Source: Bacteroidales bacterium
GTDB lineage: Bacteria; Bacteroidota; Bacteroidia; Bacteroidales; Dysgonomonadaceae
Assembly: GCA_012728155.1 (NCBI GenBank)
Contig: JAAYFR010000244.1
Span: 1 to 36,553, forward strand
Reading direction: 5' to 3'
Length of the DNA: 36,553 bases
Shown one piece after another: positions 6,948 to 17,911 of the stretch; within the stretch, counting starts at the first letter, position 1; each line of letters opens with the position of its first letter. Both the position numbers and the translations under genes were made by a program. The notes under the pieces are model-generated. The model saw nothing but the letters and a program-made list of their open reading frames with translations, was not told where the DNA came from and did no database searches.

Positions 6948-8903
6948 ATGGCTTATAACATTATTGAGCTTAATGAAAAGCTCACAACAGAATTGAGAGT
7001 TCTTGCCAAGGAGATGGGAATAAGACGCCCTGACGCATACAAGAAAGAGGAGCTCATTTATAAAATTCTTGATGAACAGGCAATTGCCGAAACAAAAAAA
7101 CTGAGCATCGACAGTGGCACCCAACAGAGTCACACACCGAGAAAAAGTTCAGAAAGCAAAACAAATTCTCAGAAAAATAAGAGTGTCACCAAAAAAGAGG
7201 AAACTAAAGAAAAAGAGAGCGACAAGAAAGAAGATCGCATAAAACCTCAGAACCAATTACAGACTATACAGCCTTCTGAAAGGCCAAAGTTAGTAAAAAA
7301 GGAGAGTTCCCCTACCGAACAAAAGGCGCCGGTTACACAAGAGAATGCTCCCCGCACTCAATCGGAAATAAAACCGGTAACCAGCAAAACAGTTCGGGGA
7401 AAAAGTATAGAAGCTTCCGAAGTTAAAGCTGATACTCCCGAGAAAAAAGTTGTTGAGACTACGCCAAAAGCTCCCGGTAAACCTATTCAGTTGGTCTTTC
7501 GTTCTTCCAAACAGAGAAAAGAGGAGAAGAGCACGCCTGCTCCCGTTATATTACCCCCTGTAGTGGCAGAGGAACCCTCGGAAGAAAAAACAGACACACC
7601 CGTGAAAGAGGCGCCCGTTCCTGGCAGTAAATTTTCGATGATGGATCTCATGTCGCCTTCTCCTTTACAGTCTAAACAGCCGGCTACCCAACAAAGCAGA
7701 CAGCCCCAAGCCCATCAGGTTCAATCACAACCGCATGCTCAGGCACAAGCTCCACAACTCAAGGAAAAAGAATCCACTTACGATTTCGACGGCATACTCA
7801 ATGCCTCCGGCGTATTGGAGATCATGTCTGACGGTTACGGTTTTCTGCGTTCTTCCGACTACAACTACATGTCGTCACCCGACGACATATATGTATCTCA
7901 GTCGCAGATCCGTCTCTTCGGATTAAAAACAGGAGATGTGGTAGAGGGCCCTATCCGTCCACCCAAAGAAGGTGAGAAGTTCTTTCCATTGGTAAAGGTA
8001 GATAATATCAACGGTCAGGATCCGGATGATGTACGCGACCGTGTACCTTTCGATCATTTAAAGCCACTCTTTCCCAACGAAAAATTCAATCTCACCAAAG
8101 GACATAACGACAATCTTTCCTGTCGTGTAGTTGATCTTTTCTCCCCAATTGGTAAGGGGCAACGCGGTTTGATTGTGGCGCAACCCAAAACAGGGAAAAC
8201 TATGTTGTTGAAAGATATTGCCAATGCTATTGCCGACAATCATCCGGAAGTATATATGATTATTTTACTGATCGACGAACGCCCGGAAGAGGTTACCGAT
8301 ATGGAACGGAGCGTAAATGCAGAAGTAATTGCATCTACTTTCGATGAACCGGCCGACCGACACGTGAAGATTGCCGAGATTGTATTGAACAAAGCCCGTC
8401 GACTGGTAGAGTGTGGTCATGATGTAGTGATATTGCTCGACTCCATCACCCGCTTGGCACGTGCGTACAATACCGTACAGCCCGCGTCGGGAAAAGTGCT
8501 CTCGGGGGGTGTGGATGCCAACGCGCTACACAAGCCGAAACGTTTCTTTGGTGCAGCCCGCAATATCGAACATGGTGGCTCACTTACTATCATTGCAACA
8601 GCACTCACAGAGACCGGTTCCAAGATGGACGATGTGATCTTCGAAGAGTTCAAAGGCACCGGCAACATGGAATTGCAGCTCGACCGTAAGCTCTCCAACA
8701 AGCGAATCTTTCCTTCTGTGGACATCATCGCATCGAGCACACGTCGTGACGATCTGCTCTTATCACAGGAAACACTCAGCCGCATGTGGGTACTCCGCAA
8801 TTTCTTGTCGGATATGAATTCGGTAGAAGCCATGGAATTCTTGCTAACTCGTCTGAGACGCACTTCAAGTAATGAAGAGTTTCTAATCTCCATGAATGAC
8901 TGA
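6948..8903 (+). CDS. rho: Transcription termination factor Rho with a long N-terminal low-complexity insertion
   Basis: Rho_N helix bundle, about 230 aa of K/E/P/Q-rich insert, RNA-binding DGYGFLR and DIYVS, Walker [28 protein letters not shown] and FKGTGNMEL. Confidence 0.98.
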
Positions 8904-8942
8904 TTATCGGATAGATAATAGATCAAAGATCCCAAAATATTG

Positions 8943-8977
8943 AAATAAGCCCTCTATTGTATGGGGCTTATTTTTTT
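8943..8977 (+). terminator. Intrinsic terminator downstream of rho
   Basis: AAATAAGCCC...GGGCTTATTT stem running into a T tract. Confidence 0.8.
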
Positions 8978-9080
8978 GATTTTACGCTACAACAAACAGG
9001 TTAAGAGCAAAGCCTATATTCCATTACGAAAGTGAATTTTTAAAATTTTTACACAAGAAGGTCTTTATTTTTGAATTCTC

Positions 9081-9111
9081 TTTGATAAGCCTATTAAAAG
9101 TATTAATTTTG
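9081..9111 (+). promoter_or_regulatory. Bacteroidota promoter (-33/-7) of the glutamate mutase operon
   Basis: TTTG at 9081-9084 and TAATTTTG at 9104-9111 with a 19-nt spacer, 27 nt upstream of ATG 9139. Confidence 0.65.
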
Positions 9112-9138
9112 CAGCATACTTTTACTGAAAAATACATT

Positions 9139-9552
9139 ATGGGTGAAAGAACTATCGTAACTGGTGTCATAGGAGCCGACGTGCATGCCGTGGGGAATAA
9201 GATTCTGGCATTTGCTCTAAGAGAAGCAGGATTCAAAGTGGTTAACCTGGGTGTAATGGTCTCCCAGGAAGAATATATTGAAGCTGCTATAGAAACAAAT
9301 GCCGATGTCATCTTGGTCTCTTCACTCTACGGACATGGTGAAATCGACTGTCACGGCTTACGTCAGAAATGCGACGAAGCCGGATTGAAAGAGATCCCCT
9401 TACTTGCGGGTGGAAATTTAGTGGTTGGAAAACAAAATTTCGAAGATGTGGAAAAACGGTTCCTGGCCATGGGATTCACCAGGGTCTATCCTCCCGGCAC
9501 CACAGTTGAAACATGCATTGAAGACCTCAAGGAGCTGTTTCAATCGGAATAA
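9139..9552 (+). CDS. glmS: Glutamate mutase (methylaspartate mutase) sigma subunit, B12-binding
   Basis: 137 aa from ATG 9139. Base-off/His-on motif [22 protein letters not shown] and RVYPPGT. The symbol refers to the glutamate mutase S subunit (mamA), not glucosamine-6-phosphate synthase. Confidence 0.95.
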
Positions 9553-9607
9553 ACCTTGTTTATAAGGGATCACTACAAAGAAGACAACCTGATTCGATTT
9601 TTTAAAA

Positions 9608-10990
9608 ATGAATTTGCTTACTGCAGATATAGGTAGCACCTACACCAAACTGACAGCCATCGATTCGATCCGGAAAAAGATCATAGCCACATCGTCTGCC
9701 TTCACTACCATTGAGACCGATGTGATGGAAGGGTTCTCATCCGCTTATGGTCAATTGAAAAAGATTGCAGCCAATTTCGAATACGATCAATTGCTCTGTT
9801 GCAGCAGTGCCGGTGGTGGGCTTAAGATGGTTGCCCTCGGTCTTGTGCCGGAATTAACCTCTAAAGCGGCAAAGCTTGCAGCAGCCAGTGCCGGCGCCAA
9901 AGTGGTAAAAACCTATGCCTTTGAGATATCGCAGTCGGAGCAAAACGAGATATTTGAAATTGATCCCGATTTGGTTTTACTTTGCGGTGGCACCGATGGC
10001 GGCAATAAAGAGGTCATCCTCTCCAATGCCCGTCGATTGACTCAGATTCAAAGATCGTTTACCATCATAGCGGCAGGCAATAAAAGTGCATCTTTTGAGT
10101 TGGAAAAGATATTCTCCGAATCGGGGAAAGCTTTTGTAATTACCGAAAATGTGATGCCGGAGTTCAACAAGCTCAATATCGAACCGGCAAGACAAAAGAT
10201 AAGGGAACTCTTTATCAGCCGGATTATTGAAGCCAAAGGATTGAGTCGGATTCAGGAACTGTGCAAGACAGCTATCATTCCCACTCCTTTGGCGGTACTG
10301 GACGGTTGTGAATTATTAAGTAAGGGTACAAAATCAATTTCGGGTATCGGTGATTTGATGGCGATTGACCTTGGAGGAGCAACTACCGATATCTATTCCA
10401 TCGCTAAGGGGAAACCAACACGAACCAATGTAACGGTCAGAGGATTACCTGAGCCTGCAAGTAAACGGACAGTGGAAGGGGACTTGGGAATGCGATACAG
10501 CCTCTCCCCGCTTGTGAATGGTCTGGAGTTAAACGATCTTTCAGATGAATTGGGAGTCGAAAGAGCAATTTTAGCAGATTGGATAGATGCTTGCATCCAA
10601 AATCCGGCGTTATTGCCACCACCCGGATCGATCGAACAAAAGGTGGAAGAGTTTCTTGCACGCAATGCTGTAAGAATAGCCACAGAACGCCATTGCGGGT
10701 CCTATCAGTCGGTTTACACTCCTTTTGGGCAGATGTTCACACTTACCGGTAAGGATCTCTCCGCAGTACCATTTGTTATTGGAATAGGAGGAGCGATCAT
10801 CAATTCCCATCGACCTCATTATATTTTAGAGGGAGTAAAACCTCTTGTCAATGATTTCGAATATGCCAAACCCGAAAATCCTCATTTTCTGATTGACAAA
10901 AAATATATTTTCGCTTCCATGGGATTGATCAGTTCTGTTGATGCCGATTTGGCAATCACATTACTGAAACAGGAAATTATCAATTCATAG
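9608..10990 (+). CDS. glmL: Glutamate mutase reactivating/accessory protein GlmL (ASKHA ATPase fold)
   Basis: DIGSTYTK, CSSAGGGLKM, GGTDGGN, DLGGATTD and KRTVEGDLGMR. Canonical position between the S and E subunit genes. Confidence 0.92.
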   Translation: MNLLTADIGSTYTKLTAIDSIRKKIIATSSAFTTIETDVMEGFSSAYGQLKKIAANFEYDQLLCCSSAGGGLKMVALGLVPELTSKAAKLAAASAGAKVVKTYAFEISQSEQNEIFEIDPDLVLLCGGTDGGNKEVILSNARRLTQIQRSFTIIAAGNKSASFELEKIFSESGKAFVITENVMPEFNKLNIEPARQKIRELFISRIIEAKGLSRIQELCKTAIIPTPLAVLDGCELLSKGTKSISGIGDLMAIDLGGATTDIYSIAKGKPTRTNVTVRGLPEPASKRTVEGDLGMRYSLSPLVNGLELNDLSDELGVERAILADWIDACIQNPALLPPPGSIEQKVEEFLARNAVRIATERHCGSYQSVYTPFGQMFTLTGKDLSAVPFVIGIGGAIINSHRPHYILEGVKPLVNDFEYAKPENPHFLIDKKYIFASMGLISSVDADLAITLLKQEIINS

Positions 10991-11028
10991 AATTAAAATG
11001 CACAAATGCAGTTGAAAGAGGAAAAAAC

Positions 11029-11102
11029 CCGACATATTTAAAATAATCATTAAACACCCGAAGGGAATGATTATTTTGAACATCAAAGGTTCCATACACC
11101 GA
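11029..11102 (+). repeat. 74-bp hairpin-forming intergenic repeat, copy 1 (glmL-glmE)
   Basis: 71/74 identical to 12607-12680 and contains the inverted repeat AAAATAATCATT / AATGATTATTTT. Confidence 0.9.
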
Positions 11103-11127
11103 AATATGAAAAATAAAACCAAAATAT

Positions 11128-12585
11128 ATGGAAATAACCAATAAAAAACTATCAGACGATGCTTTTTTCGCCCAACGAAAAGAGGTCCTGCAACAGTGGC
11201 ATACGGGGAAAGAGGTCAATTTTGACGAAGCCGTAGCCTATCAAAAATCAATTCCTCCACATAAACGCTTCGGCACAAAACTGGCGAAAGCAGTAACTGA
11301 GAACACCACACTCATCCAACCAAGGGCAGGTGTGGCACTCTATGATGAGCACATAAAACTGCTACAATATCTCGAGGAGGAAGGTGAAGCCGATTTGCTT
11401 CCGTCAACGGTTGACAGTTACACCCGTCTCAACAGGTATAACGAAGCCGAAACGGGGATTGAAAAGAGTAAAGAATCGGGACGTTCAATGCTCAATGGCT
11501 TTCCCATCGTAAACTATGGTGTGGATATCTGTCGGATTGTAACATCATCATTAAAGAAACCGGTACAAGTGCGTCATGGAACCCCTGATGCCCGTTTATT
11601 GACTGAAATCAGCATTGCAGGAGGGTTCACTTCTTATGAGGGAGGAGGCATCTCCTATAATATCCCCTATTCTAAAAATCATTCCATTGAGAAGACCATT
11701 TCCTATTGGCAATATACCGATCGGTTAGTCGGTGTATATGAGGAGGCAGGGGTATCGATCAACCGGGAGCCATTCGGGCCACTCACCGGAACACTTATTT
11801 CGCCCTGTATCTCCAATTCGGTGGCTATTATTGAAGCATTGCTTGCAGCCACACAAGGAGTAAAAGATATTACTGTGGGGTATGGTCAGTGTGGAAACCT
11901 TATTCAGGATGTAGCAGCCATCCGTTCGCTTACACGGGTGATACGGGAGTATCTCGATAAATACGGCTTCCATGATGTACGAATTACCACTGTTTTCCAT
12001 CAGTGGATGGGAGGGTTTCCCCAGAACGAGGCCAAATCTTTCGGCGTCATCTCGTGGGGAGCAGCTGCCGCAGCGTTGGCGAAAGCCACCAAAGTAATTG
12101 TCAAAACGCCACATGAAGCCATGGGTATTCCCACTAAAGAAGCAAATGCCTCAGGATTACATGCTACAAAACAGGTGATTTCCATGTTAAAGGACCAAGA
12201 TTTCCGTGAAATTCCAGCGGTCATTTCCGAAAGTGAAATCATAGAGAAAGAGATGAGATGTATCCTCAATAAGGTGGAAGAGTTGGGCAAGGGCGATTAT
12301 GCGATCGGCACGGTAGCCGCCTTCGAGGCGGGGGTACTTGATATTCCTTTTGCGCCAAGCCGTTACAATGCCGGGAAGGTGATGCCTGCCCGCGACAATA
12401 TGGGTGCAGTCCGTCTCCTTGAGATAGGCAATCTGCCGTTTACTCCTGATTTAATCGACTTCCATCGTCAAAAGCTGGAAGAGCGTGCCAAACAGGAAAA
12501 ACGGACTGTCAGCTTCCAGATGGTGATCGATGATGTCTATGCCATTGGCAAGGGTTTTTTAGTGGGACGTCCGAAAAAGAATTAA
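11128..12585 (+). CDS. glmE: Glutamate mutase epsilon subunit
   Basis: 485 aa. [60 protein letters not shown] and KTPHEA. Confidence 0.96.
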
Positions 12586-12606
12586 AAATAAAATAATCGT
12601 ATGAAA

Positions 12607-12680
12607 CCGACATGTTTAAAATAATCATTAAACACCCGAAGGGAATGATTATTTTAAATATCAAAGGTTCCATACACCGA
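12607..12680 (+). repeat. 74-bp hairpin-forming intergenic repeat, copy 2 (glmE-mal)
   Basis: Near-identical to 11029-11102. 18-bp stem with one G-U pair, plus an outer stem GTATGAAACC / GGTTCCATAC. Confidence 0.9.
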
Positions 12681-12686
12681 CAAGGA

Positions 12687-12764
12687 AAAAATAAAATAAT
12701 CGTATGAAACGAGCATGATAACTGTTCTCACACAAGAACATGACGAAAAGCGAGTTCCATACGA
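12687..12764 (+). repeat. Related palindromic unit with the same termini but a different interior
   Basis: 12687-12710 exactly repeats 12584-12607 (24 nt, period 103). TCGTATGAAAC (12700-12710) pairs with GTTCCATACGA (12754-12764). Inner hairpin TGTTCT-CACACA-AGAACA. Confidence 0.7.
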
Positions 12765-12869
12765 CACCTTTGAATTTTATAGAAAAGTGAATACAGAGAT
12801 AAAACTTGTTTTAACTATGTTGAGCGAAGAAAAAATCTAAAGAAATTGAAAATAAATAATTTTAGTCGT

Positions 12870-14087
12870 ATGAAAATTATCAAACTTATTTGTGCATCCG
12901 GAAAAACAGGGTTCTTTTTTGATGATCAGAAAGCCATTAAACAGGGTGCTAAAAATGATGGCGCTTTCTATGAAGGTAACCCCGCAACATCTGGTTTCAC
13001 CTCCGTACGCCAAGCCGGCGAATCTATTTCCATTATTTTTGTCCTTGAAAACGGAGCTTATGCTTATGGTGATTGTGCTGCTGTGCAATATTCGGGTGCG
13101 GCTGGTCGTGATCCCCTTTTTTTGGCAGAAAATTTTATTCCGGTGATCGAGAAAGAAATTGCTCCGCTCTATGTAGGAAAAGAGATCACCACCTTCAGGG
13201 AAATGGCAAATATTGTTGATAGTAAGAACTATCATACTGCCATCCGTTACGGTGTCACACAGGCTTGTCTCGATGCGGTAGCAAAGAGCAAAGGAAAACT
13301 TATGACAGCGGTAATTGCTGAAGAATACGGCTTGAAAATATCAGACCGGTTAATTCCTATCTTCTCACAATCGGGCGACGACCGATATCTCAACGTCGAC
13401 AAAATGATTATGAAAGGTGTGGATGTGCTGCCGCATGCTCTTTTCAACCACGTAGAAACCAAGGTGGGTTGGAAAGGTGAAAAAATCAAAGAGTATTTGG
13501 AATGGCTCCGCGACCGCATCCTGACTAAAAAGCCATTCGACGGCTATAACCCTGTCATCCATATCGATGTATACGGCAATTTAGGTATTGTCTTCGAAAA
13601 TGATTTTGATGCCATTGTCCGGTATATCGGTGAGTTGGAAGAGATTGTGAAACCGTTCAAACTCCGTGTGGAAGGCCCGGTGGATATGGGTGAAAAGGAG
13701 GCACAGATAAAAGCTCTGCGCGTTATCCGTGAAAAGATGGAAGAAAAAAAGATCTACGCCGAAATTGTGGCCGATGAATGGTGCAACACCCTTGAAGATA
13801 TTATCGATTTTTCCGCCCAAAAAGCGGGACATATGATACAGATAAAAACACCCGACCTCGGTGGAATCAACAACAGTATTGAAGCGATCATGTATTGCAA
13901 GGAACATGGGATGGATGCTTATTTAGGTGGCACATGCAATGAGACCAACCGTTCGGCCGAAATATGTGCACACATCGCCATGGCGGCGTCACCCGTGCAG
14001 ATTCTCGCCAAACCGGGTATGGGTGTCGACGAAGGTTATATGATTATATATAACGAAATGAACAGAATTCTGGCTATTAGCCACTAA
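12870..14087 (+). CDS. mal: Methylaspartate ammonia-lyase (beta-methylaspartase)
   Basis: TGFFFDDQKAIK, GDCAAVQYSGAAGRDP, QSGDDRY, VLPHAL, HIDVYG, ADEWCN, QIKTPDLG, GGTCNET and AKPGMGVDEG. ATG at 12870 preferred over TTG at 12846. Confidence 0.96.
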   Translation: MKIIKLICASGKTGFFFDDQKAIKQGAKNDGAFYEGNPATSGFTSVRQAGESISIIFVLENGAYAYGDCAAVQYSGAAGRDPLFLAENFIPVIEKEIAPLYVGKEITTFREMANIVDSKNYHTAIRYGVTQACLDAVAKSKGKLMTAVIAEEYGLKISDRLIPIFSQSGDDRYLNVDKMIMKGVDVLPHALFNHVETKVGWKGEKIKEYLEWLRDRILTKKPFDGYNPVIHIDVYGNLGIVFENDFDAIVRYIGELEEIVKPFKLRVEGPVDMGEKEAQIKALRVIREKMEEKKIYAEIVADEWCNTLEDIIDFSAQKAGHMIQIKTPDLGGINNSIEAIMYCKEHGMDAYLGGTCNETNRSAEICAHIAMAASPVQILAKPGMGVDEGYMIIYNEMNRILAISH

Positions 14088-14099
14088 AGATTTACATAT

Positions 14100-15458
14100 A
14101 TGGAAGAACTCAGAATACTCTCCCCTACTGCCATTCTCGGATACGGCTTCCCAATGGAGTCATTTGAAGAGGGAATGAAACGAAAGCCGCATGTAATCGC
14201 GGTGGATGCCGGTTCTACCGATCCGGGACCCTTTTATTTAGGTGCCGGGAAATCGTTTACCGACCGAAATTCGGTGAAACGCGACCTTGAAATTATGATC
14301 CCTGCCGCTCTTGAAGCCGGAATTCCTGTTATCGTGGTAACGGCGGGCGGTTGTGGTGGCCGACCCCATGTGGAATTTGCCGTGGAGATTGTGATGGAAA
14401 TTGCCCACGAAAAACAGTTGTCGTTCAAATTGGCTGTCATTCAATCGGAATTCGACCGGGAATTTGTGAAAGAAAATATCCGTGCAGGCAATATTTCACC
14501 GCTTTTCCCTGCCCAGGAGATAGGTGAAGCCGATGTGGAAGAGTCGGTACGCATTGTCGCCCAGATGGGAGAGGAGCCTTTTATTGAGGCGTTGGACAAC
14601 GGTGCCGATGTGATCCTTGCCGGTCGCAGCTACGATCCGTCGGTATTCGCCGCCCTGGCAATCCGGGAGGGGTTCGACAAGGGGCTTGCCATCCATCTGG
14701 GTAAGATACTGGAATGTGCCGCCATTGCAGCGCTGCCCGGCAGCGGAAGTGATTGCATGTTCGGCTATCTCCATCATGATGACTTTGTTCTTGAGCCGCT
14801 TTCTCCGTTACGTAAATGTACCGCTCTCTCGATAGCAGCACATACACTGTATGAAAAGAGCAATCCCTATATTTTACCCGGTCCCGGTGGCAGCATCAAC
14901 CTTCACCATGCGCAGTTCGAGCAAATAGATGACAATAAGGTGAAGGTGAGCGGTAGCCGTTTTATACCCACCCACGACTACTTCGTAAAACTGGAAGGTG
15001 TACGCCGCACGGGATACCGCACTATTTCCTGTGCAGGTGTGAAGGACCCGATTATGATGGGAAAGATTGACGCCATTGTCGAGAGCGTGAAGGAGCGTGT
15101 GGAGAATAATTTTGAAAATTACGGGATCAAAGATTTCTTTCTCGATTTCAAAATTTATGGTCGGAATGGTGTGATGGCGATCTTCCCGGATATTGCCCAT
15201 AGTGCAGGTGATGAGTTGCTGATTATTATTGAAGCGGTGGCCGACACCCAAGAGCAGGCCGATACTATCTGCGGATTTGCCCGCAGCACCATGCTTCACT
15301 TTGGCTACGAAGGGCGTATCGCCACTGCCGGAAATCTGGCATTTCCTTTCTCCCCCTCCGATTGTAAAATGGGCGAGGTATATGAATTCAACATCTATCA
15401 TCTGATGAAGGTGGAAGATCCGAAAACGCTCTTCCCTATTGAATATTTCCAATTGTAA
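14100..15458 (+). CDS. Acyclic terpene utilization AtuA (DUF1446) family protein; candidate citramalate lyase large subunit
   Basis: ILGYGFP, DAGSTDPGPFYLG, IVAQMGEEPF, AGRSYDP, GKILECA and AHTLYEK, which I recognise as typical of AtuA-like proteins in methylaspartate clusters. The function is inferred from context. Confidence 0.8.
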   Translation: MEELRILSPTAILGYGFPMESFEEGMKRKPHVIAVDAGSTDPGPFYLGAGKSFTDRNSVKRDLEIMIPAALEAGIPVIVVTAGGCGGRPHVEFAVEIVMEIAHEKQLSFKLAVIQSEFDREFVKENIRAGNISPLFPAQEIGEADVEESVRIVAQMGEEPFIEALDNGADVILAGRSYDPSVFAALAIREGFDKGLAIHLGKILECAAIAALPGSGSDCMFGYLHHDDFVLEPLSPLRKCTALSIAAHTLYEKSNPYILPGPGGSINLHHAQFEQIDDNKVKVSGSRFIPTHDYFVKLEGVRRTGYRTISCAGVKDPIMMGKIDAIVESVKERVENNFENYGIKDFFLDFKIYGRNGVMAIFPDIAHSAGDELLIIIEAVADTQEQADTICGFARSTMLHFGYEGRIATAGNLAFPFSPSDCKMGEVYEFNIYHLMKVEDPKTLFPIEYFQL

Positions 15459-15469
15459 AAACAATAATA

Positions 15470-15790
15470 ATGATGGAATACAAATTAACCGACATAGCAT
15501 CTGTCATCCGAAGCAAGAATTCGGGACCCTACGAACTGACTTTCGATGTTATTTTCAAAGATTTCGAGATGTATGAACGGGTGAAAACGGCCAATATATT
15601 CAATGCTGCCATGTTTGCGCCGTTGTATGGTATCCCCGAATCGGACATCATCAGTCTGGTCTATTTTGATCCTGCCAAAGCTATCAAAATCACCATCGTA
15701 CGCCCTATTCCGTCGGGTTCGCTCGGTGAGACCGACGTATACGGGGCACAGCAACATGCTCCATTGATGGGGGTGAAATTTGAATTGTAA
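15470..15790 (+). CDS. DUF4387 family small protein, partner of the AtuA-like protein
   Basis: IRSKNSGPYELTFD and DVYGAQQHAPL motifs. Starts 11 bp after the AtuA-like gene. Confidence 0.8.
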   Translation: MMEYKLTDIASVIRSKNSGPYELTFDVIFKDFEMYERVKTANIFNAAMFAPLYGIPESDIISLVYFDPAKAIKITIVRPIPSGSLGETDVYGAQQHAPLMGVKFEL

Positions 15791-15831
15791 CAGACAAACA
15801 AAATCCTGATTCAAAGCCAAACTCAACCGAA

Positions 15832-16794
15832 ATGAAAAATTTCATTCAAGAATATATGGTGTCGTCGCAATACTTCGCACCGCGCGGCAAAGAGCGGCTG
15901 ATGTTCCTTGGCGAACAGATAGCGCATCGGCATCTGAATTACAGTGATCGGCTGATTGGCGTTGTAGGAGATGCGGGAGCTGGAAAATCGTCTCTCATCA
16001 AAGGGATGTTTCCGGGGCTTCAACTCTCTAACGACGATGATATCGTAAGTCCCCGGAAAATCATGCAGGTACGTAGTTCACTGATGGAGGTGGAAGATGC
16101 CACCACCTTTCACATCGACATCCGCTTTCAAATGGCTTTCACCCAAATGTATGAAATTGTGGACTACGTAAATTCGCTTTTGGAACGTAAACGCAGGGTG
16201 GTAATCGAGCATTTTAACCTGCTCTATCCGGTGTTGGGTAAAAATGCCAATATAATTGTGGGTATTGGAGAAGAAATTATCGTAGCACGTCCAAGTGTTT
16301 TCGGCCCTCAACCCCAAAGTATTTACCAAATTGTACACGAATCCCTCCGGTACCGAAAAATGGCACATTCGGCCGAAGATGTCACGACAGATGTCCTGCA
16401 TGAAGTTTTCGATATCAAAGAAGAGGAGTATTTTTTCTCCGATGTAAGAAATGGTTTTGTGCTGAAATTTTTAAAAAAACCCAATGTTGATCTGGAAAGA
16501 CTGGCTATACTGATTGATGAACGGATTGCCCAGCATCTCAATATCTCCTATTACGATGAGGATCATATTATGCTGGGTGATAAGATCATGGGATGCGATG
16601 GTCCACGATTTCACGTGGGTAACACCTCCGAAATAGAGAATTTCTCCCTTGTGAGGGAGTTTATTTATGATCCAACCACCAAGGCCTACTGTCTGGTCGG
16701 ACTGGTAGACAGACATACAAAAAATTTAGAGAATAGAAATACGCACTATTTCTTGACCCGGGAGTGTTTTAATGAGAAAGATAAGTACATCTGA
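15832..16794 (+). CDS. Uncharacterised P-loop protein with a C-terminal Ala/Thr-tRNA synthetase editing-like (second additional) domain
   Basis: Walker A GDAGAGKS (15967-15990). RKMAHSAED and GCDGPRFHV resemble the HxxxH / CxGxH motifs of the tRNA_SAD fold. Confidence 0.7.
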   Translation: MKNFIQEYMVSSQYFAPRGKERLMFLGEQIAHRHLNYSDRLIGVVGDAGAGKSSLIKGMFPGLQLSNDDDIVSPRKIMQVRSSLMEVEDATTFHIDIRFQMAFTQMYEIVDYVNSLLERKRRVVIEHFNLLYPVLGKNANIIVGIGEEIIVARPSVFGPQPQSIYQIVHESLRYRKMAHSAEDVTTDVLHEVFDIKEEEYFFSDVRNGFVLKFLKKPNVDLERLAILIDERIAQHLNISYYDEDHIMLGDKIMGCDGPRFHVGNTSEIENFSLVREFIYDPTTKAYCLVGLVDRHTKNLENRNTHYFLTRECFNEKDKYI

Positions 16795-17176
16795 TATAAC
16801 CAATTTGGTTGAACGGCTTTGCATTGAAGCCTGTTGTGTGATCACCGACGATATCAGCAACAAGTTTAAAAGCTGTCTGCAGAGCGAAAGGTCACCTCTG
16901 GGTAAACAAATATTACATACCCTTATTGAAAATGCCCGCATTGCCCGCGATGAACGAAGTCCGATCTGTCAGGATACAAGAATATATTTTGCCGCCATCG
17001 GTGGAGCGGCAGCTCTTATGGCTCAACGTGTAGAAAGTGCGGAAGTGATCGCTTTCGAAGAGTTTGGCACAGAAGCCATTCGCCGTTTACACGTAAAGGA
17101 GTTACCCGTAGTAGTAGCCATCGATTGTTATGGCAACGACATCTATAAAATAGCGAGAGAGAGATACCAAGAATAA
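16772..17176 (+). pseudogene. Class I fumarate hydratase/mesaconase remnant: alpha-subunit N-terminus fused in frame to beta-subunit C-terminus
   Basis: Residues 1-69 resemble the alpha N-terminus and end at PICQDT. Residues 71-134 resemble the beta C-terminus (YFAAIGGAAAL, GTEAIRRL, PVVVAIDCYGNDIY). Total length is only 134 aa. Confidence 0.85.
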
Positions 17177-17182
17177 TTATAT

Positions 17183-17911
17183 CTATAAGTTACGGATCCA
17201 TATATTCCTGAAGGATACGGCAGTTCCATGATCCTGAAGCATCAGCGGGAGCCGTCCATGGGCATTGTATTCCGGTAGTCCGATATAGGGTGTGTGCCCT
17301 TTCAGTATATAATTGTTTTGTACCACAATACCGTTCAAGACCACGGTAATCATTGCCGGTGATTCGAGCTTACCTTCCGAACCAAATATGGGAGCTTTCC
17401 AGTAGATATCATATACCTGCCACTCACCGTTTTTCGTATAGGCGTTGGCCAGTGGGGCCTGTTGTTTGTATATGCTGCCTACCATACCGTTTACATAGGT
17501 ATCGTTATTGTCACCATCGAGTATCTGTACCTCATAATGGCTCATAAGGAAAATTCCACTATTGCCCCGGTTTTGTCCACTATGGTTTTCGGGATCTGGA
17601 GATCTGAACTCGATATGTAACTGACAATCGCCGAAATGATCTTTCGTCATAATTCCCCCTGTGCCAGGTTTCACAGACATAACTCCATCACTCACATTCC
17701 ACTGGGGAGCGTCTCCTTTTACATGTACCCATTTCGAAAGATCAGTTCCATCAAATAAGAGGATAGCATCGGAAGGGGCAGATCCTGCCATCTTTCCGGG
17801 AGTTACTTTTTCGGGTACTGGATAATACCATTCTGTTTGAGCAGGCGTCCATTGCGTAAAAGCAGAGAGAGAATAGACGATGCAGATCATTAAAAAAACA
17901 CTCTTTTTCAT
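17183..17911 (-). CDS. Secreted DUF1080 (3-keto-disaccharide hydrolase) family protein
   Basis: Signal peptide, APSDAILLFDG, FGDCQLHIEFR, GNSGIF, YEVQILD and LQDHG..VSFRNIWIR. Confidence 0.88.
   Translation of the reverse strand: MKKSVFLMICIVYSLSAFTQWTPAQTEWYYPVPEKVTPGKMAGSAPSDAILLFDGTDLSKWVHVKGDAPQWNVSDGVMSVKPGTGGIMTKDHFGDCQLHIEFRSPDPENHSGQNRGNSGIFLMSHYEVQILDGDNNDTYVNGMVGSIYKQQAPLANAYTKNGEWQVYDIYWKAPIFGSEGKLESPAMITVVLNGIVVQNNYILKGHTPYIGLPEYNAHGRLPLMLQDHGTAVSFRNIWIRNL

Follow-up and report, generated by a model that had tools for sequence, protein, structure and literature searches.

A fused TsaE/UbK-like and AlaX-like protein encoded in glutamate mutase operons is a candidate regulator of GlmE

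The window, a stretch of 36,553 nucleotides from a bacterium of the Dysgonomonadaceae (Bacteroidales), carries on its forward strand a glmS-glmL-glmE-mal-cmlA-cmlB operon followed by an open reading frame, which we call X (15832..16794). The first four genes, coding for the B12-binding S subunit GlmS (9082..9552), the accessory protein GlmL (9608..10990), the glutamate mutase E subunit GlmE (11128..12585) and the methylaspartate ammonia-lyase MAL (12846..14087), all score above their NCBIfam cut-offs. GlmL has an actin-like (ASKHA) ATPase fold, which matches that of the diol dehydratase reactivating factor. The AtuA/DUF1446 and DUF4387 proteins encoded downstream match the two subunits of the solved citramalate lyase CmlAB (cmlA, 14100..15458, PDB 9ERQ_A, E 2.9e-149; cmlB, 15470..15790, PDB 9ERQ_B, E 4.7e-29). 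The original prediction placed X in an operon that makes a non-proteinogenic amino acid. 3-Methylaspartate is indeed made, but as an intermediate and not as the end product, and the operon is one for glutamate degradation.

The X reading frame overlaps a remnant of the two-subunit mesaconase/fumarase (16772..17176), in which residues 1-69 of the alpha subunit are fused in frame to the last ~65 residues of the beta subunit, with a deletion of about 1 kb at this site. Contigs of two DNA runs, possibly derived from the source sample, span the fused remnant, and one RNA-library contig diverges from the window at position 16983, as an undeleted form of mesaconase would. A single-chain class I fumarase encoded on contig C94 (65% to E. 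coli FumD) could substitute for the remnant. X itself is covered by RNA-library contigs in one of two runs, although such contigs cannot show transcription. The glmE-mal (12586-12880) and glmL-glmE (11026-11118) spacers contain a dispersed repeat with 77 BLAST matches in the genome and a contig depth of ~30-fold in public runs, which is probably a MITE- or REP-like element. An Rfam scan of positions 8700-17400 gave no match.

X is a protein of 320 amino acids, in which a TsaE/UbK-like P-loop domain is fused to an AlaX/ThrRS editing-type domain. The N-terminal domain (15832..16311, about residues 1-160) contains a YFAPRG motif, a Walker A motif at residues 46-53 (within LIGVVGDAGAGKS, 15952-15990), an NDDD motif (residues 67-70), an HxDxR motif (H94, D96, R98) and an EH pair (E126, H127). 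The C-terminal domain (16312..16716, about residues 161-295) carries R175, H179, E182, D/E183, D204, C255, R259 and H261, with the HSAED and CDGPRFH motifs encoded at 16366-16380 and 16594-16614, respectively. The Walker A, HSAED and CDGPRFH motifs are located where the original prediction had placed them, and their conservation was assessed in 93 non-redundant full-length homologues with less than 80% identity to each other and down to 32% identity to the query. G46, G51, K52, H94 and E126 are present in 93/93 sequences, D96 in 91/93 and the Switch II residue R98 in 91/93. The TsaE-like ATP- and magnesium-binding residues K52, S53, H94, D96 and E126 are invariant or nearly so. In the C-terminal domain, H179, E182, C255 and R259 are each kept in 92 of the 93 homologues, D/E183 in 91 and H261 in 88; R175, E182, D204 and R259 are near-invariant. 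These motifs are not due to chance. As judged by tree length (8.2 for the N-terminal versus 18.8 for the C-terminal domain), the ATPase domain is the more conserved half, and its conservation equals that of the pathway enzymes. In all four Prevotellaceae sequences of the non-redundant set (L030, L035, L040 and L041, from Prevotella/Hoylesella) H261 is replaced by Gln, and one locus (L206, G816:C23) has a tandem duplication of X, with Lys at R259 in one copy and Lys at R98 in the other.

No Pfam or NCBIfam family matched X above its cut-off: the score was 19.9 bits for PF02367 (cut-off 26.6) and 18.3 bits for TIGR00150 (cut-off 60.1), and PF07973 gave weak matches in 41 of 101 family members. 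Automatic database names vary between "alanine-tRNA synthetase second additional domain protein", "lantibiotic ABC transporter" and "TsaE", an Atlas search gave DUF3388 as lead (0.77), and PDB sequence searches returned P-loop noise only. The closest named relatives belong to the Dysgonomonadaceae, such as Proteiniphilum (94% identity), and no viral homologue was found. The literature searched, which covered few subscription journals and no supplements, contained no paper on X.

The AlphaFold model, built from 101 sequences, predicts a compact protein of two domains (pLDDT 86.9, pTM 0.81). The N-terminal domain of the model superimposes on YdiB/TsaE with a Z score of 10.5 over 120 residues, and a profile-profile alignment gave a probability of 94% to TsaE, with cross-controls below 1%. 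The C-terminal domain aligns with AlaX-M (9IUW; VIA-align Z 13.4, rmsd 2.8, 123 aligned residues) and with the ThrRS editing domain (1TJE; Z 11.3), in agreement with Foldseek searches for each domain; pairwise profile alignments gave E values of 2e-6 to AlaRS and 1e-5 to ThrRS. The tRNA_SAD-type fold suggested by the original prediction is thus borne out by the model.

Members of the TsaE/YjeE/YdiB (UbK) family (PF02367; 1HTW, 5NP9, 6N9A) are partner-activated ATPases, and TsaE is reported to reset its platform through ATP hydrolysis (PMC6614819). [quoted passage not shown] Compared with the residue roles described for TsaE (PMC6614819, PMC4330362), X shares the fold, the Walker A motif, the His and Asp of HxDxYR and the magnesium-binding Glu, but differs in several respects. 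It lacks the SPT/S loop of Switch I (SPT(F)/SPT/S motif), with no SPT consensus at positions 73-75 (N in 64, P in 61 and R in 67 of the 93 homologues), has HxDxRF in place of HxDxYR and EH in place of EW, carries the additional YFAPRG, GMFPG, NDDD and GIGEE motifs, is fused to a second domain and scores below the Pfam cut-off. Because of the absent loop and the two altered motifs, kinase activity of X is not assured. By analogy with TsaE/UbK, X probably needs a partner for ATP turnover. The source genome codes for a separate, canonical TsaE.

The C-terminal domain shares its fold (Z 11-13) with AlaX and the editing domains of AlaRS and ThrRS (tRNA_SAD, PF07973; 9IUW, 1V7O, 1TJE), and the first His, the Cys, the last His, the GF strand and the HVxNTxEI segment are in register. 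In contrast to these proteins, X has HxxE[DE] for HxxxH and CxGPRxH for CxGxH, lacks the helical insert of 20-30 residues of AlaRS/ThrRS, the acidic residue before the Cys and the Arg of the last strand, and carries a P-loop domain. Alignment with AlaRS/ThrRS editing domains confirmed the replacement of the second His (D in 58, E in 33 and H in 0 of the 93 homologues) and the two-residue insertion between Cys and His, both of which had been predicted. For EcAlaRS H568A and PhoAlaX-M H103A it is reported that the second His, like the zinc, is dispensable for deacylation, and that the Cys and the first His matter (PMC12003907). As the latter two are kept in X, ester hydrolysis is chemically possible. 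The domain may therefore have retained the capacity to bind an amino acyl group or to hydrolyse it, and to judge from the conserved residues this group would probably be an acidic one. The missing R693-type Arg was at first taken as an argument against tRNA binding and then dropped, because human and yeast AlaX are described as lacking this Arg as well (PMC11260482). The source genome has its own AlaRS editing domain. As X departs from defining motifs of both TsaE and AlaX and the mechanism of neither can be assigned to it with certainty, we place it in neither family.

X is closely linked to glutamate mutase, as the original prediction had supposed. Of the 80 best X loci in GTDB genomes, upstream sequence of 8 kb or more was available for 46, and glmE was found in 42 and mal in 41 of these 46. 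For the four loci without the adjoining genes, glmE is encoded elsewhere in the genome in all three tested, and the fourth has mal elsewhere. We also searched four evenly drawn samples that comprised 301, 251, 151 and 201 genomes, counting the centre genome of each. Leaving aside five weak matches in the first sample (E above 1e-4), these yielded X in 21, 6, 1 and 41 genomes, respectively, and glmE was found in 20, 6, 1 and 41 of these. In total, 69 of the 904 genome searches yielded X and 68 of these 69 genomes also have glmE (20/21 in Clostridia, 6/6 in Bacteroidales, 1/1 and 41/41); the sole exception is a 2.1-kb contig, on which X follows cmlAB. The number of matching stretches among GTDB species genomes is estimated at ~1,200. 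The cross-phylum groupings of the X and GlmE trees are the same. Evolutionary-rate covariation over 41 loci did not make even the known pairs GlmS-GlmE (0.09) and CmlA-CmlB (0.07) stand out.

X is present in most of the sampled anaerobes that have the canonical pathway, but glmE is less regularly accompanied by X than X is by glmE. X was not found in 5/25, 2/8 and 8/49 glmE-carrying genomes and in six genomes with a divergent GlmE in the third sample, nor in the E. coli O157 chromosome, proteobacterial plasmid clusters, G128, G173, G277 and the Clostridium-type clusters with the full pathway. For Ensifer and Salmonella this covers plasmid records only, and for most negative calls the search had scored only 7-15 candidates in each genome, with many of the genomes being metagenome-assembled. 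That X was not found in E. coli O157, G128, G173 and G277 indicates that it is not needed for mutase activity. Three further ideas were rejected. X is not a lyase-specific factor, as the lyase encoded nearby may be CmlAB, CitDEF or neither; it does not take the place of the cobalamin adenosyltransferase, as both occur together; and genomes with and without X cannot be told apart by their type of AspRS, with 35 of 37 matching the bacterial type.

In the fourth sample, some low-scoring GlmE proteins are encoded directly next to X, in the order GntR or MarR or murI, glmE, sometimes gerM, X and rph. We hand-picked 25 genomes from this sample and searched them for glmS, mal and the GlmL family; among those carrying X, 8 lacked a glmS that exceeded the cut-off, 7 a mal and 5 a GlmL-family match. 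Six genomes have a degenerate GlmE in the murI/gerM/rph region and no glmS or mal was found in them (L197-L202; G814, G842, G724, G801, G868 and G781), with G724, G781 and G842 being essentially single-contig genomes. Other small B12-binding proteins are present in these genomes. The arginine claw residues R66 and R100 together with E171 are described as substrate-binding residues of glutamate mutase (PMC10947579), and the numbering of the window GlmE matches the PDB chain of the crystallised enzyme. R100 and E171 are lost in all six GlmE proteins next to X and R66 in five of them. The reading frames are nevertheless full-length, share 24-64% identity with each other and keep the C-terminal 400-480 region. 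X is full-length in four of the six loci, with 21-22 of 23 checked residues and an intact C-terminal site, and is reduced to the P-loop domain in the other two; R98 is changed in all six. The intact forms come from Bacillota, and two of their genomes are essentially closed. X persists after GlmS, GlmL and MAL and the active site of the mutase are gone, whereas persistence after loss of GlmE itself was not seen in these samples. It could also be that both X and the degenerate GlmE are relics, kept at the murI-rph locus for separate reasons.

A second line of evidence comes from GlmE itself. In an alignment of 95 sequences, Tyr471 (codon 12538..12540, computed from the reading frame start at 11128) is found in 71/71 GlmE proteins from genomes with X and in 4/24 from genomes without, where F, N, R, H, S, T, M, W or L take its place. 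It is the top-ranked GlmE column, with a difference of 0.87 compared with 0.62 for the next, and among 454 conserved columns of GlmS, GlmL, GlmE and MAL nothing comparable was found in GlmS, GlmL or MAL. Among the six lowest-ranked columns listed for each gene, Y471 is the only one in which several dissimilar residues (N, F, R) replace the conserved one. The signal is carried by only two or three independent losses; Clostridium-type and proteobacterial GlmE share several other swaps and may count as one. An independent-pairs sign test gave 2 same, 0 opposite and 2 unchanged pairs (p 0.5), a test without power. Tyr471 is kept in four genomes in which X was not found. In G133 glmE is split over contig ends, in G893 the contig ends where X sits in the relative G781, and G783 is the third; G173 has a complete cluster, all candidates were scored and it may be a true exception.

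The co-occurrence, the persistence next to degenerate GlmE and the Y471 pattern are together most simply explained if the C-terminal helix of GlmE is where X acts. As glmS, mal and GlmL can be missing where X stays with GlmE, elimination also points to GlmE as the partner. From these sequence patterns we propose, with a little more than even confidence, that X is a dedicated ATP-using regulator that targets GlmE at Tyr471 and is possibly a tyrosine kinase under the control of an acidic amino acid, and we regard physical binding of X to GlmE as somewhat more probable than its absence. In our model, the TsaE/UbK-type domain would dock on the GlmE C-terminal helix around Tyr471 and possibly phosphorylate this residue, and the switch would be gated by an acidic amino acid, glutamate being the probable one, that occupies the AlaX-type pocket. 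An acidic ligand is suggested by the invariant R175 and R259 beside the His/Cys/His site. We infer that such a switch would, at low glutamate, prevent the mutase from depleting the pool. Alternatively, the C-terminal domain may be the activity that removes the modification.

Tyr471 is invariant and never Phe when X is present, which suggests a phospho-acceptor; a hydrogen-bonded docking site fits as well. That a phosphoryl group is transferred to Tyr471, as opposed to ATP-driven gating of a non-covalent kind, receives about half of the confidence given to binding of X to GlmE. It is also a tentative suggestion, and clearly the less probable part, that X is a UbK-type tyrosine kinase that is gated or reversed by a repurposed tRNA-editing domain sensing glutamate and switches GlmE via Tyr471 phosphorylation. 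On that same reading, X and GlmE might have survived in some spore-forming Bacillota as a kinase and pseudo-enzyme signalling module after loss of the pathway. Among the functions considered in the original prediction, an amino acid-sensing NTPase regulator fits best.

Glutamate mutase is a classic B12 radical enzyme and has been studied mainly in its clostridial form. Clostridium-type clusters in our samples lack X, and the crystallised clostridial GlmE has Phe at position 471, because of which the textbook enzyme would hide such a switch. AceK, HPrK/P and GlnE are converter enzymes of central metabolism, and X would resemble them in logic only, namely that a ligand-gated enzyme modifies one residue, with no homology implied; we know of no such converter enzyme for a B12 radical mutase. 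If X does control GlmE at Tyr471, this would be a case of post-translational regulation of a B12 mutase and of a tRNA-editing fold reused as a metabolite sensor, and it would bear on glutamate turnover in digesters, gut and mouth and on engineered methylaspartate pathways.

A different partner within the operon would be GlmL, together with which X could use ATP to reactivate or assemble the B12 mutase, in the way that TsaE works with the TsaBD platform. TsaB and TsaD share the actin-like fold class with GlmL, and the likeness of GlmL to the diol dehydratase reactivating factor, the loss of R98 where GlmE is degenerate and the resetting of the platform by TsaE (PMC6614819) would all be in keeping with this. 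We nevertheless consider it unlikely, as X persists in genomes without a GlmL-family or GlmS match (G724, G801, G868, G736) and where GlmE has lost the active site that would be reactivated, enterobacteria and Clostridium-type clusters have GlmL but not X, and no GlmL column co-varies with X in the way Y471 does. The B12-enzyme chaperone also named in the original prediction fits less well for the same reason, namely that GlmS and GlmL can be missing where X persists.

The function favoured in the original prediction was that of a trans-editing or detoxifying factor for methylaspartate, that is, one hydrolysing 3-methylaspartyl-tRNA(Asp/Asn). A precedent is the canavanyl-tRNA deacylase CtdA, which like X is a stand-alone editing-type protein beside a non-protein amino acid pathway and adjoins a catabolic operon (PMC10018355). 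The AlaX fold with its kept catalytic Cys and first His agrees with such a role, given that the lost second His is reported to be dispensable (PMC12003907); R259 and R175 would suit a carboxylate side chain, and the lacking R693-type Arg does not exclude editing (PMC11260482). However, CtdA is annotated as a B3/4-domain protein (PMC10018355), whereas X combines an AlaX-type with a P-loop domain and is retained in genomes that should not produce the amino acid. The genomes with a degenerate GlmE, in which no glmS or mal was found, should not form 3-methylaspartate by this route, and the intact C-terminal site in four of them argues against methylaspartyl-tRNA editing as the main job. In addition, X was not found in several organisms with the full pathway, among them E. 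coli O157 and those with Clostridium-type clusters, and editing explains neither the more conserved ATPase domain nor GlmE Y471 nor the forms consisting of the N-terminal domain only. The literature searched yielded no paper on whether AspRS charges methylaspartate. The proposal is weakened by these observations, and we now think it improbable.

Regulation of GlmE can also be compared with two functions that need no contact between the proteins. X might be a small-molecule kinase or a metabolite-repair hydrolase acting on a glutamate-related metabolite, to which the two conserved sites in the compact model and an N-terminal domain as conserved as the pathway enzymes would be suited; every catalytic step is already assigned, though, and neither the retention next to degenerate GlmE nor the Y471 pattern would be explained, which makes this a doubtful option. 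A general tRNA or translation quality-control factor (for example for D-glutamyl- or mis-glutamylated tRNA) with a historical glmE link, in line with the descent of both domains from tRNA-handling proteins and the frequent position of X directly 5' of rph near murI in Bacillota, is very unlikely, since the rph position is as expected if the entire glm cassette had inserted between murI and rph (L207), the copies in Bacteroidales lie away from rph, the 80 loci show no tRNA-gene bias and X co-occurs almost without exception with glmE.

Two further groups of GlmE-like proteins were noted. In five loci (L203, L205, L212, L213 and L217, from G775, G736, G740, G811 and G778), the GlmE active site is largely intact and no GlmS match was obtained; in L212 and L213, GlmE is followed by genes that, read by eye, resemble a 2-hydroxyacyl-CoA dehydratase subunit and its activator. 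Divergent GlmE-like families (L151 in G032, L158 in G387, and L248-L254) have changed active-site residues, with MAL in one of five genomes, and are probably mutases for other substrates.
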